64,000 nucleotides of DNA from Bacteroidales bacterium. GTDB lineage: Bacteria; Bacteroidota; Bacteroidia; Bacteroidales; P3. The notes beneath the pieces were generated by a model. It was not told where the DNA came from and did not search any database. It worked only from the letters and a program-made list of their open reading frames with translations. Positions 26,878 to 38,996 of the stretch are shown one piece after another (positions within the stretch are counted from its first letter, which is position 1; each line of letters opens with the position of its first letter). The stretch lies in assembly GCA_017449975.1 (NCBI GenBank), contig JAFSYK010000064.1:27060-91059 (forward strand). Direction: 5' to 3'. Position numbers and translations under genes: made by a program.

Positions 26878-26931
26878 CAAAGGTACACCTAATATAACCT
26901 CGATCAGAGATTATAGACAATTATAGAAAAA
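26878..26931 (-). promoter_or_regulatory. promoter module: TTTTTCTATAATTGTCTATAATC, 23-nt spacer, TACCTTTG
   Basis: Reverse complement read directly. The same architecture occurs at 32459-32513, and a weaker version at 31794-31849. Confidence 0.6.
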
Positions 26932-31544: not shown

Positions 31545-31763
31545 TTATCCAATTCTTTGAACGTCCAAATATGCCATACTTAATGCGCCAGCCCTGCGGA
31601 TGTCGATGCCATAGATACGCATGAATGCATCGGCGACGGCTTGACCTCCGTTAGTGGTGACGGGGTTGGTGATGCTGTTGGTTACGACATCTACGCTCAT
31701 TCCCTTCTCTACGCGGATGCCACTGGTGAGCTTGCTGCTCTTGATGGTTACTCTGTATACCAT
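31545..31763 (-). CDS. small hypothetical protein (72 aa)
   Basis: MVYRVTIKSSKLTSGIRVEKGMSVDVV...GGQAVADAFMRIYGIDIRRAGAL. First gene downstream of the leader. Confidence 0.5.
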   Translation of the reverse strand: MVYRVTIKSSKLTSGIRVEKGMSVDVVTNSITNPVTTNGGQAVADAFMRIYGIDIRRAGALSMAYLDVQRIG

Positions 31764-31860
31764 AGTTTTATTTTTATAAGGTTTGTATTTTTGCAATATT
31801 ACTGATTCTTTGGTGCTCTTACCCCGATTATAGACAATTATAGTAAAAATCACACCTGTA

Positions 31861-32180
31861 CGGCAGGGTGGGGTGGTGCTCCTTTTTTCGCCCTTGAGTT
31901 CTCAGTAGGGCGGTTATTTATAAATACAAGGAAAGCATAGAACTCGTGTTGTCGTTTCTACGAACTGTGGGCATCGCCAAACGCCTCTCCCGAATAGAAA
32001 CTGAGAACCCTGTCCTATGCTTTACGCTATGTAGAGGCATAAAGCCAATACATACACGAAAAAGCAAAAGGCATCGTACCAGTGTCCTCAGGATGAAATT
32101 TGGCGAATTTACAGCTCGGACCGTACAAATGCTTTCCGCAATTGTTCGACGTACTCTCGTCGATTGTGGTTGCAAATATA
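31861..32180 (-). ncRNA. promoter (-7 box TATATTTG at 32173-32180) plus structured leader, copy A
   Basis: Reverse complement aligns along its length with 38187..38480. Shared blocks include CGACGAGAG, GTCGAACAAT, AAGCATTTGTA, TTCGCCAAATTT, GATGCCTTTTGCTTT, GGCGTTTGGCGATGCC and GAGTTCTATGCTTT. Confidence 0.5.
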
Positions 32181-32225
32181 ACATTTTTTTCTGGTATGAT
32201 GCCTTATTGGGTAAGGTATATGGTA

Positions 32226-32432
32226 TTATTTAAAGAATAGTTTGGCAATCCGGATTTCTATGGGGAACCATAGCAGCACATAGAGAATCCACCACCAGAA
32301 TGATATGCTGTCTCCGGCCGATATCATGTGGAAGGTTTTGATTGTGCAACTCACAACCGCCACAATGTATAGCAATAATAGTAGTATTATGCCAGTGAGG
32401 ATGCCACCAGTGCCTTCAGTGTTGTCTTCCAT
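32226..32432 (-). CDS. small two-TM membrane protein (68 aa)
   Basis: Two hydrophobic segments. Its own promoter module lies at 32459-32513. Confidence 0.35.
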   Translation of the reverse strand: MEDNTEGTGGILTGIILLLLLYIVAVVSCTIKTFHMISAGDSISFWWWILYVLLWFPIEIRIAKLFFK

Positions 32433-32458: not shown

Positions 32459-32513
32459 CAAAGGTACACCGATTGCCGTTGGCTTATGCCAATTATAGGC
32501 AATTATAGAAAAA
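32459..32513 (-). promoter_or_regulatory. promoter module: TTTTTCTATAATTGCCTATAAT, spacer, GGTGTACCTTTGCA
   Basis: Same architecture, and an identical 13-nt GGTGTACCTTTGC, as at 26878-26931. Confidence 0.55.
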
Positions 32514-32517
32514 AAAA

Positions 32518-33795
32518 CTACAACATGTCGGGCAGGGTGGGGTAGAGCTGGTGCAGGAGCAGCTTGAATTCGTAAGCGGCACTCTTGGCATAGCCACTGT
32601 CACGGTCTTTGACCCATTGCGGGCCGAAGAAGAATTGGCGCATTTTTCTGTAGGATCCCCTTTCGGTGAGACATCGGATGAGGTAGATGAGTTCGTATGA
32701 TTTGCCGTTCCGGCCTTTCCATTCAATGGGTACAATGCGCTCGGGGCGCATCTTGGACGAGAAACGGTAGGCGAACATCTGTTTCACCTGATTGTTGTTG
32801 TCGATATAGCCGTGCGCTGCCAAGGCGTTGATCAGCTCTGCAAAGCGTTCGGCTCCGTTTTTCACCACCTCGTATCGCAGGTTGAAGCAGTCGTCGCTGT
32901 TGGTCGATTCGTTTTTCAGCGAGAAATAGTCGGGCGGAAGGCTGAAGTCGTCTCCGTCTACTTCAACGGTCTGCAGCTGCGCTTTGGCTTCCGGCCTGCT
33001 CAGTATGGATTCGATGATTTTCCGTTCGCGAGGCTTGTAGTCTGTTATGTCGTCGGTGTAGAAGCTGCAGAGCCACAGGAATGTGTTTTGTGTGTTTTCG
33101 TATTGGGCGCGGTAGTAGGCTTTTACATCAGCATTGTACTCGTATTCGTTCCCGTATTCTTGGTTCAGGAGTTGCGTGCCTATCTGCGACATATTCTCTA
33201 TAGAGCGCAGCATCATTTGCCCTTCTTTGTTTACGTCGTTGGTATTGGTGGTGGCTATCGCATCCATGGCGGTAAAGAGCTCCTCAAGCGGCAGAGAGAA
33301 AACAGAAGAGGTGTCAGGCCACACAAGGCTGCAAAGTGCGCTGATTGCCCTTAAACCGCATGGTTTGTTGTGCAGCAGCGTGACAAACGCTTCTTTGTCG
33401 TTGCGGGCATAGCTGTCTTGCAGCTGGTTGAGGGTGGCGGAGTCGGCATCGATGGTGCCAATAAACTCTTTTGCCGAGTAGGGTTCCAGTGAGAGAAGGG
33501 TGTGGTAGATTTCTTCGGGTGATAGCGAGGTTTCTTGCTCTTTGGCCTCATCCAGAATTTCCTGCCACCATTCATGTATCATCCGGTTGTTGTTGATGAA
33601 CGAGAGTACGCGATGCAGGGGTGCGACGACGTTCATGATCAGTGCCTGCGATTCGCGGAAAATGGGTTCCAGCTCTGGATTCTCTTGGTCGGCCAACACT
33701 TCGGCCAGTACCTCATCGGGCAGGTGGTATTCACTTGCCTTCTCCAGACCCTTGTAGTATTGTTTCATCCGTTCCGCTTTGGAAATGTAGTTCAT
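32518..33795 (-). CDS. hypothetical protein (425 aa)
   Basis: Long ORF with ATG start. The -7 box TACATTTG lies at 33877-33884 on the minus strand. No recognisable motif. Confidence 0.7.
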   Translation of the reverse strand: MNYISKAERMKQYYKGLEKASEYHLPDEVLAEVLADQENPELEPIFRESQALIMNVVAPLHRVLSFINNNRMIHEWWQEILDEAKEQETSLSPEEIYHTLLSLEPYSAKEFIGTIDADSATLNQLQDSYARNDKEAFVTLLHNKPCGLRAISALCSLVWPDTSSVFSLPLEELFTAMDAIATTNTNDVNKEGQMMLRSIENMSQIGTQLLNQEYGNEYEYNADVKAYYRAQYENTQNTFLWLCSFYTDDITDYKPRERKIIESILSRPEAKAQLQTVEVDGDDFSLPPDYFSLKNESTNSDDCFNLRYEVVKNGAERFAELINALAAHGYIDNNNQVKQMFAYRFSSKMRPERIVPIEWKGRNGKSYELIYLIRCLTERGSYRKMRQFFFGPQWVKDRDSGYAKSAAYEFKLLLHQLYPTLPDML

Positions 33796-33924: not shown

Positions 33925-33955
33925 AAAATAGAAAGCCTCCCTTTTGGGGAGGCTT
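33925..33955 (-). terminator. terminator after tRNA-Glu
   Basis: aagcctccc / gggaggctt stem, followed on the minus strand by tctattttta. Confidence 0.65.
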
Positions 33956-34031
33956 GGTACCGCATATCAGAGTCGAACTGATGATCTTCTGCGTGAGAGG
34001 CAGATGTCCTGGACCACTAGACGAATGCGGC
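33955..34031 (-). tRNA. tRNA-Glu (anticodon CTC), CCA encoded
   Basis: Reverse complement is GCCGCATTCGTCTAGTGGTCCAGGACATCTGCCTCTCACGCAGAAGATCATCAGTTCGACTCTGATATGCGGTACCA. All four stems pair, and the D-arm TTCGTCTAG.GG.CCAGGACA is typical of tRNA-Glu. Confidence 0.85.
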
Positions 34032-38186: not shown

Positions 38187-38480
38187 TATCTTTGCGCATC
38201 GTTTCGACGAGAGAAAGTCGAACAATGCGAAGAAAAGCATTTGTATTGGTCCGCTCTTTAAAGTTCGCCAAATTTTAACCAAAGGACAACGATACTGATG
38301 CCTTTTGCTTTGGTCTATGTATTGGTATCATTCCACTACATAACGAAGCATAGGATAAGGTTCAAGTTAGTTTTACTTTGGGAAGGCGTTTGGCGATGCC
38401 TAAAGAGCGTAGAACAAACAACTGAGTTCTATGCTTTTTTTATTTAGTATAACGCCGACCACCGGGAACTCGGGTCGGCA
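38187..38480 (+). ncRNA. promoter (-7 box TATCTTTG at 38187-38194) plus structured leader, copy B
   Basis: Homologous to the reverse complement of 31861..32180. Terminal helix GAAAAGCAT/ATGCTTTTT and 3' hairpin GCCGACC/GGTCGGC both carry compensatory differences relative to copy A. Confidence 0.5.
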
Positions 38481-38510
38481 TGAAATAAATAATACCGACG
38501 AAAGAATGGT

Positions 38511-38996
38511 ATGAAAAGAATCATTGTTTCACTAATAGGTGTGGTAATGCTCTTTATATCCTGTAAGAGTGATTTAGACGGAGCAATTCATTCTGCTGTC
38601 AGAGACGGTGTAATATCTTCTGAAGAATGGAATGAAATTGTAAGAGAAGCCACATCGAATCAAATATTTATTGACGAAAATGGGATTTTTTCTACCAGTT
38701 TGTTACAGGATTATATCAGGGAATATGTGGTAAATAACATGCGTGGAGTTAATGATATTCAGTTTTCCGAGGATATTGTTTTAACACCTGCTCCAGATTC
38801 ATCAAAATCAGTTGAATGTATATTCAAGTTTTTCCTTGAGCGTAGTGGAAGTATGATTCCCTATGATGAGAGACATACTTCTGGACAGTTTAAGAGCGCT
38901 ATTACGGGCTTATTGAATTCTGTGCCCAATAATACAATCCAGTTCATTACGGGGTGTACTCTCAAATCATCTGCAATGACAAAAGGTAGCAAGTGA
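38511..38996 (+). CDS. lipoprotein ending in a truncated vWA-like MIDAS segment (possible gene remnant)
   Basis: Lipobox MLFISCKSD. FKFFLERSGSMIPYD resembles the vWA beta1-DxSxS motif, but only about 55 aa follow it. Confidence 0.45.
   Translation: MKRIIVSLIGVVMLFISCKSDLDGAIHSAVRDGVISSEEWNEIVREATSNQIFIDENGIFSTSLLQDYIREYVVNNMRGVNDIQFSEDIVLTPAPDSSKSVECIFKFFLERSGSMIPYDERHTSGQFKSAITGLLNSVPNNTIQFITGCTLKSSAMTKGSK

Follow-up and report, generated by a model that had tools for sequence, protein, structure and literature searches.

The sequence upstream of an accessory operon in the 64,000-nucleotide stretch of DNA analysed here (the window) is a member of a large family of structured 5′ leader RNAs of Bacteroidales, which was found neither in Rfam 15 nor in the literature searched. 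The window encodes two copies of this leader. Copy A, on the minus strand, precedes the operon of block 1, and copy B, on the plus strand, precedes that of block 2. On the minus strand, the segment following the copy A promoter box aligned with positions 38187-38490 of the plus strand. The two copies showed 78% identity over 243 nt in a blastn comparison (E = 9e-43), a similarity that far exceeds chance and of which a repeat search alone recovered just a 52-nt core. The covariance model of the family (R1) matched copy A over model positions 1-297 (E = 9e-68). The alignment and the model scores bear out the claim of the first-pass annotation that two unrelated accessory operons have a promoter and a structured leader in common, and the coordinates that it gave were all correct. 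The two loci and the segment separating them contain the following features:

32173-32180, minus strand: −7 promoter box of copy A, TATATTTG, of the Bacteroidetes TAnnTTTG type
31880-32169, minus strand: copy A leader RNA, full-length match to R1, 237 bits
31545-31763, minus strand: first gene behind copy A, 72 aa, DUF6140 (Pfam E = 2e-34)
32226-32432, minus strand: 68-aa ORF, separating copy A from tRNA-Glu
32518-33795, minus strand: 425-aa ORF, between copy A and tRNA-Glu
33955-34031: tRNA-Glu(CTC), in the segment separating copies A and B
38187-38194, plus strand: −7 box of copy B, TATCTTTG
38198-38487, plus strand: copy B leader, 271 bits
38454-38479, plus strand: hairpin D of copy B
38511-38996, plus strand: first gene behind copy B, 161 aa, 31 nt downstream of copy B

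In the copy B operon, genes for SrfB and SrfC come after the 161-aa gene. At copy A, 125 nt separate hairpin D from the start codon of the DUF6140 gene. The core segment had been described as carrying tRNA-Glu, yebC, SulP and truA. All of these are present, together with a gene for a 23S-IVS protein and the 68-aa and 425-aa minus-strand ORFs, neither of which had been listed. Copy B lacks equivalents of two further ORFs predicted over copy A (31918..32184 and 31946..32233), as had been noted, and these ORFs overlie RNA with compensatory substitutions in its helices.

A pattern scan of public genomes (19-base pattern) followed by nhmmer yielded 70 distinct copies of the leader, and R1 was built from 68 copies. 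The carriers of the 70 copies were nearly all metagenome-assembled genomes labelled “Bacteroidales bacterium” from rumen or horse gut, and one was named Candidatus Colimorpha. By blastn, copies were present in 13 of 24 relatives from the genus. R1 detected six copies in the source genome, and 104 of 121 genus genomes carried one to eleven copies each. The first-pass annotation had proposed common regulation of the two operons, and the presence of the same leader ahead of many other operons makes such regulation plausible. Within the order, full-length but diverged copies were found in 52 of 301 genomes, corresponding to 41 of the 209 Bacteroidales genera sampled. Outside Bacteroidales, 300 genomes across the class gave a handful of weak, mostly partial R1 matches. 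Where the 19-base pattern matched non-Bacteroidales genomes, model scoring showed the matches to be due to chance.

At its gathering thresholds, Rfam 15 recognized two tRNAs in the window and nothing else. A permissive Rfam 15 scan of positions 31700-32300 (E up to 10) returned one chance match of 33 nt to the L31 leader (19.7 bits against a cut-off of 33). No match to the leader was found by blastn in plasmid and phage collections. No description of the element was found in the literature on FopS, in that on BspA/LRR RNA motifs, or in large motif-discovery surveys.

The source genome contains four other copies. The third copy (contig C39:2038-2369 in G000; loci L003, L004 and L156) is damaged. 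About 50 nt are inserted between the 5′ strands of helices T and R, and similarity to the family breaks off within the T 3′ strand. In the 500 nt or so behind it no ORF begins, and the copy has probably decayed. Three further, diverged copies (C78:1697-1989, C62:8458-8746 and C50:9779-10064; L157-L159) form a subfamily in which T is GCGUGAGA:CUCAUGC. They have one D-loop specificity each (ACCUC, AACCUC and ACCCUC), and one of them precedes a lipoprotein with an Lcl_C domain. In a different genome with a complete chromosome (G324, one contig of 4.2 Mb), two identical distant copies (L201 and L202) lie 1.3 Mb apart on opposite strands, and no ORF of at least 50 aa starts near them. These two copies may be part of a larger duplicated segment.

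The leader has its own promoter. A TAnnTTTG box is located 2-8 nt (mostly 3-4 nt) ahead of model position 1 in 66 of 67 genus copies. Conservation across the genus extends further, over roughly the 50 nt preceding the −7 box (32195-32235, minus strand, in copy A). Within this region, at about −50 to −30, is a short inverted repeat that covaries (CCTTA...TAAGG or CTTT...AAAG). It could be bound by a transcription factor, or it could be where an upstream hairpin ends. The element acts as RNA on one strand according to two observations: the antisense strand scored about 24 bits against 271 for the sense strand, and G-U pairs occupy fixed columns (GU in 60 of 68 copies at 202:288 and UG in 58 of 68 at 55:125). 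The short ORFs over the element were not conserved, and no conserved leader peptide was found.

These features bear on the alternative that the element works at the DNA level, as an invertible promoter, a cassette-swapping recombination site or a mobile promoter cassette, with DNA inverted repeats mistaken for helices. Surface proteins and type I methylases are typical phase-variable cargo in Bacteroides. Both occur among the extremely diverse genes downstream of the leaders, and the element does contain many inverted repeats. However, all copies have one orientation relative to the gene, the complementary segments do not include the promoter, and neither a conserved recombinase nor any other conserved neighbouring gene accompanies it, so that it does not look like an inverton. 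Moreover, the frequent G-U pairs are possible on one strand only, and the paired segments are hypervariable, such that no single recombinase could recognize them. We regard a DNA-level function as extremely improbable.

The leader has a fixed position ahead of genes, and this position, like the strand, the promoter and the helices of the family, is directly supported. In 66 of 68 genus copies, an ORF on the same strand starts within 150 nt. The first genes in the genus vary widely, and 34 of the 68 are singletons. Pfam domains found among them were BspA-type LRR (six cases), FHA (three) and DUF6140 (two), as well as HsdM, SPFH, kinase and dynamin-like domains in one case each. In the order set, which comprises 54 distinct sequences left out of model building, 34 of 44 first genes had signal-peptide-like N-termini as called by a crude hydrophobicity rule, against a background of 25% among long ORFs of the source genome (p = 3e-13). 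BspA-type LRR and T9SS sorting domains were encoded by eight and four of these 44 genes, respectively. No conserved upstream neighbour or partner gene of the copies was found. Anti-phage defence was considered as a common theme and rejected, with PADLOC matches in one or two of 62 first genes. The gene context of diverse exported proteins indicates no metabolite, and no ligand or protein partner is indicated.

Specialized NusG paralogs act on long operon leaders in Bacteroides, and a factor of the NusG/UpxY type, comparable to RfaH or LoaP, had been put forward as a possible shared regulator of the two operons. The source genome does encode one NusG paralog besides the housekeeping NusG. Several observations speak against this proposal: no NusG-domain gene heads any leader-associated operon (62 + 44 first genes), the gene contexts are not capsule loci, and across the genus the number of NusG genes varies independently of the RNA. 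Thus, two NusG genes but no copy of the RNA occur in G005, and the RNA occurs in G011 and G012, where no NusG match was obtained. Recognition by such a paralog is thus very improbable. A processive antitermination RNA, comparable to HK022 put or Bacillus EAR, would instead bind RNA polymerase and render it resistant to terminators across long, foreign, AT-rich operons. This function would suit a single conserved element ahead of unrelated genes, in particular one that opens long accessory operons, as it does in block 1 and in the srf-like block 2. On the other hand, many copies precede single genes, a terminator-like T/U tract lies inside the element itself, its size of about 290 nt is several times that of put or EAR, and it has no similarity to EAR or to any Rfam family. 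We consider antitermination improbable.

The secondary structure of copy A, listed in 5′ to 3′ order of the RNA, consists of a 5′ hairpin, two domains and a hairpin between them:

32146-32163, minus strand: P1, the 5′ hairpin (TCGACG/CGTCGA); all four pairs change on both sides
32071-32136, minus strand: Domain I, with helices V and W, an internal loop containing X5′ and Y5′, and hairpin hp1
Within Domain I: helix V, GCATTTGTAC:GTACGATGC, covarying in variant subfamilies
Within Domain I: helix W, GTCC:GGAC, covarying in the genus and order sets
32096-32110, minus strand: hairpin hp1, loop TCGCCAA, covarying in the genus and order sets
32111-32118 with 31961-31968, minus strand: helix X, X5′ CGAGCTGT paired with X3′ ACAGTTCG
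32087-32092 with 31989-31994, minus strand: helix Y, Y5′ CCTGAG paired with Y3′ TTCGGG
32028-32054, minus strand: middle hairpin M (TATGTA...TACATA), closed by helix N
31935-32020, minus strand: Domain II, with closing helix T, helix R, an internal loop containing Y3′ and X3′, and hairpin hp2
32013-32020 with 31935-31942, minus strand: helix T, GCATAGGA paired with TTCTATGC
31995-32001 with 31954-31960, minus strand: helix R; all nine R pairs covary
31969-31986, minus strand: hairpin hp2, loop GTTTGGCGAT; one hp2 pair covaries

The M domain is short or absent in many distant members. Helix T covaries between subfamilies, which have GCAUAGGA:UUCUAUGC, the above-mentioned GCGUGAGA pairing or GCGUGGGA:UCCCACGC. 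Covariation was evaluated over the model pairs in the two sets of copies. In the genus set (68 pairs), 86.7% of cells were paired, compared with 77.8% in shuffled and 37-46% in slid controls, and 452 cells showed double changes, compared with 194 after shuffling. In the order set, 88.4% of cells were paired (72.1% shuffled, 41-55% slid) and 422 showed double changes (148 shuffled), with changes on both sides in W, hp1, R and hp2. None of 500 shuffles reached the observed values in either set.

Domains I and II are joined by three covarying inter-domain helices, X, Y and K. For X and Y we used an alignment-free test, in which the duplex energy with a copy's own partner strand was compared with that of partners from other copies. 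In the genus set, X gave −13.2 kcal/mol with its own and −6.6 kcal/mol with foreign partners (p = 5e-39), and Y gave −12.6 and −9.0 kcal/mol (p = 8e-20). In the order set, where the X and Y helices lie outside the model, the corresponding values were −7.5 and −0.7 kcal/mol for X (p = 7e-35) and −7.8 and −1.6 kcal/mol for Y (p = 9e-30). Cross-controls of this test were not significant in the genus or the order set. The sequence of the X and Y loop strands is nearly free, and their length is fixed at 8/9/9/9 nt in most copies. The third helix, K, is a 7-bp loop-loop helix between the hp1 loop (UCGCCAA as RNA) and the hp2 loop (GUUUGGCGAU), paired as UCGCCAA:UUGGCGA. Its compensatory variants include CGGC:GCCG, CCGCC:GGCGG, GCCAG:CUGGC, UCACC:GGUGA and GCCC:GGGC. 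Two other pairings were tried and rejected. Pairing Z, between the A-rich stretch before V and the U tract as predicted in a minimum-free-energy “rod” fold, is broken by a subfamily with GCC before the U tract, and pairing P2 is not conserved outside the genus.

Helices X and Y cross V/W and R/T. Either all the helices coexist, or the RNA alternates between two folds. If all coexist, the RNA would form two four-way junctions (W-X-R-Y and X-hp1-Y-hp2) that are linked by X and Y and capped by K. We favour coexistence because the strand lengths are fixed and because hp1 and hp2 covary, neither of which a simple rod needs. Energies of the nested folds showed no consistent preference (mean difference −1.8 kcal/mol, sd 10 kcal/mol), a comparison that is uninformative if the fold is pseudoknotted.

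The 3′ end of the leader combines helix T with two further elements:

31920-31934, minus strand: U-rich tract directly after T, TTTCCTTGTATTTAT in copy A and TTTTTTT in copy B; position conserved
31889-31912, minus strand: hairpin D, whose loop GAGAACTC (31896-31903) pairs with CGAGTTC (31940-31946)

Across subfamilies T is always followed by a U/C-rich tract, and helix T with a U-rich tract is present in nearly all copies. The tract is weak in copy A and its relatives (UUUCCUUG), and T encloses a structured insert of about 85 nt. Helix T and the U tract resemble an intrinsic terminator, suggesting that transcription may end there. Hairpin D lies about 20 nt beyond the U tract and is followed by an A-rich stretch and then the start codon. 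The distance from the end of the D-loop pairing to the ATG has a median of 26 nt and is usually about 10-40 nt. The D loop targets a segment of 6-8 nt that begins just ahead of the T 3′ strand and extends into it. In copy A, this target, CGAGTTC, overlaps the inner three nucleotides of the strand. The pairing is specific to each copy (−7.1 kcal/mol for cognate against −5.3 kcal/mol for non-cognate partners, p = 2e-17), and there are more than 20 compensatory variants, for example GAGUUC:GAACUC, AAGUUCCC:GGGAACUU, ACCCUC:GAGGGU and UGUUUC:GAAACA. In 90 of 101 copies, the D-loop pairing engages the T 3′ strand at its three innermost nucleotides, for which the T 5′ strand is an alternative partner in 86 of 99 copies. 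The D loop and T thus compete for three base pairs, and these mutually exclusive pairings are conserved in about 90% of copies.

With somewhat better than even confidence, we interpret the leader as a cis-acting expression gate that operates on termination, translation or both. The Bacteroidetes promoter would drive an RNA of about 290 nt. When T is fully formed, transcription would tend to stop at the U tract, which would serve as a conditional terminator. In transcripts that read through, the D loop would capture the T strand as a pseudoknot, and this capture would couple the fold of the leader to the translation-start region. Termination, the switch and its trigger are what we infer here from sequence comparison. 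Since D is located downstream of the U tract, it can have no co-transcriptional influence on the termination decision. Should all helices form together, only the 3-nt overlap between T and D would be left as evidence for a switch. The functionally very mixed downstream genes in the genus count against a gate.

The same 3′ end could belong to a stand-alone small RNA. In this case, the functional product would be an RNA of about 245 nt with its 3′ end at the U tract, and it would act in trans: its T 3′ strand might base-pair with the loops of D hairpins in mRNAs transcribed from its own or a sister locus, or the RNA might bind or titrate a protein. The downstream gene would then be a target or a bystander. 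The leader's own promoter and terminator-like end are what such an RNA would have, and its elaborate, compact fold recalls protein-binding or catalytic RNAs. The terminated RNA also contains a segment to which the D loop is complementary, in variants specific to the locus, and a few copies have no nearby ORF. However, with a same-strand ORF so close behind nearly every genus copy there is no space for a separate promoter. The tight spacing between T and D (interquartile range 37-43 nt) suits an intramolecular pseudoknot, and partner-specific covariation within a locus is most simply explained in cis. We therefore consider a trans-acting RNA unlikely and retain the cis-acting gate as the preferred reading.

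The leader can be compared with several known systems. In the cobalamin riboswitch, the sensor domain makes a kissing loop with a downstream regulatory hairpin beside the start codon. Like the terminator-bearing leaders of riboswitches and attenuators, and the cobalamin class especially, the present leader lies in the 5′ UTR on the strand of the gene and has a covarying, sensor-like fold with four-way junctions, a loop-loop contact and mutually exclusive pairings. As in cobalamin-type leaders, a closing helix is followed by a U tract, and a hairpin near the start codon pairs back in conflict with another helix. Unlike riboswitches, it has no Rfam match and no B12 box, and what follows it is not one metabolic pathway but accessory operons and unrelated genes for exported or surface proteins. 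We know of no riboswitch in which two domains are zipped by hypervariable internal-loop helices. The repeated GCRU/AYGC words of the leader permit successive alternative pairings, with a terminator-like helix as the last, as in trp-type attenuators (1:2/2:3/3:4), but the family has no conserved leader peptide, and the competing segment P2 is limited to the genus.

As with the leaders of UpxY (Bacteroides capsule loci), RfaH-ops and LoaP, one leader type heads several long accessory operons per genome. The present operons, however, have no upxY-like first gene, and the RNA is much larger and more intricate. HK022 putL/putR and Bacillus EAR are likewise cis RNAs that start long operons; they differ from the leader in size, fold and sequence, and the leader contains an internal terminator-like element and often precedes single genes. 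The FopS RNAs of Bacteroides are trans-acting seed RNAs of 65-70 nt that target the start regions of susC (PMC11697453). The leader shares with FopS and GibS the presence of multiple copies, canonical Bacteroides promoters and a link to the outer surface. Descriptions of length and architecture set it apart, since these sRNAs measure about 65-145 nt and have a conserved 5′ seed, whereas the leader is about 290 nt long and fixed in cis (PMC11697453).

Copy A differs from other members of the family in the sequence that follows it:

31794-31849, minus strand: island-specific promoter-like module between hairpin D and the DUF6140 gene, outside the RNA family

The first-pass annotation had described this additional module of copy A, and it is real. 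It contains a 17-nt word, CTATAATTGYCTATAAT, that occurs exactly three times in the genome, always in block 1 and on the minus strand (26910-26926, 31827-31843 and 32492-32508), ahead of an ABC-ATPase gene, the DUF6140 gene and the 68-aa gene. The word repeats CTATAAT in direct orientation and is followed after about 30 nt by a −7-like box; it looks like the operator of an island-specific regulator. What had been taken for a duplicated gene end beside copy A proved to be the third copy of this module. In two other genomes, the DUF6140 gene starts 13 nt past the end of the family-model match, and the copy A module therefore looks like a later insertion. Given its 125-nt spacer with a promoter-like module of its own, the block 1 operon may be partly uncoupled from the copy A leader.

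The suspicion that the 425-aa ORF is an integrase at tRNA-Glu was dropped, as it had no Pfam or PHROG match. In a different genome, a homolog of this ORF lies about 1.5 kb ahead of a further locus that combines leader and DUF6140 gene (L079). Therefore, the 425-aa ORF may belong to the block-1 island, which would then begin at tRNA-Glu. At L079 and at L130, the main copy is preceded on the same strand by a second, weak family match (about 44-45 bits, nhmmer) at a distance of about 370 nt, such that tandem leaders stand ahead of a DUF6140 gene.

The outward-facing arrangement of the two copies around the core genes had been taken as meaningful, and a common ancestry of the two insertions had been raised as a possibility. 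Neither idea was supported. Among 14 relatives, no leader lay less than 1.5 kb from truA. A tree of 68 copies placed copy A as sister to a copy from another genome (support 98/92) and copy B within a separate clade of 35 members. These results suggest that the islands acquired members of the family independently, and the layout is, judging from the tree and the relatives, incidental. The family thus explains the common upstream sequence of two unrelated accessory operons and has no bearing on a common origin of the islands.

Bacteroidales dominate gut and rumen communities, and their surface proteins shape interactions with hosts, phages and diet. To our knowledge, little is known of RNA-based control in this order. 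A tentative and rather doubtful extension of the gate is that the leaders form a new class of large effector-sensing RNA switches confined to Bacteroidales, in which a double four-way-junction fold, zipped by hypervariable helices and held by a kissing loop, would read one common cellular or envelope signal. This would place the variable surface and secreted proteome (BspA-like adhesins and T9SS cargo) and newly acquired operons in one RNA regulon. The fold itself is unusual, with two domains and three inter-domain helices of fixed length and free sequence, and a size of about 300 nt with abundant covariation makes the RNA a good target for cryo-EM and ligand searches. With up to eleven copies per genome and an occurrence in a fifth of the sampled genera, the family would be a major unstudied regulatory element of Bacteroidales, and its position ahead of adhesin-like and secreted proteins adds to its importance.
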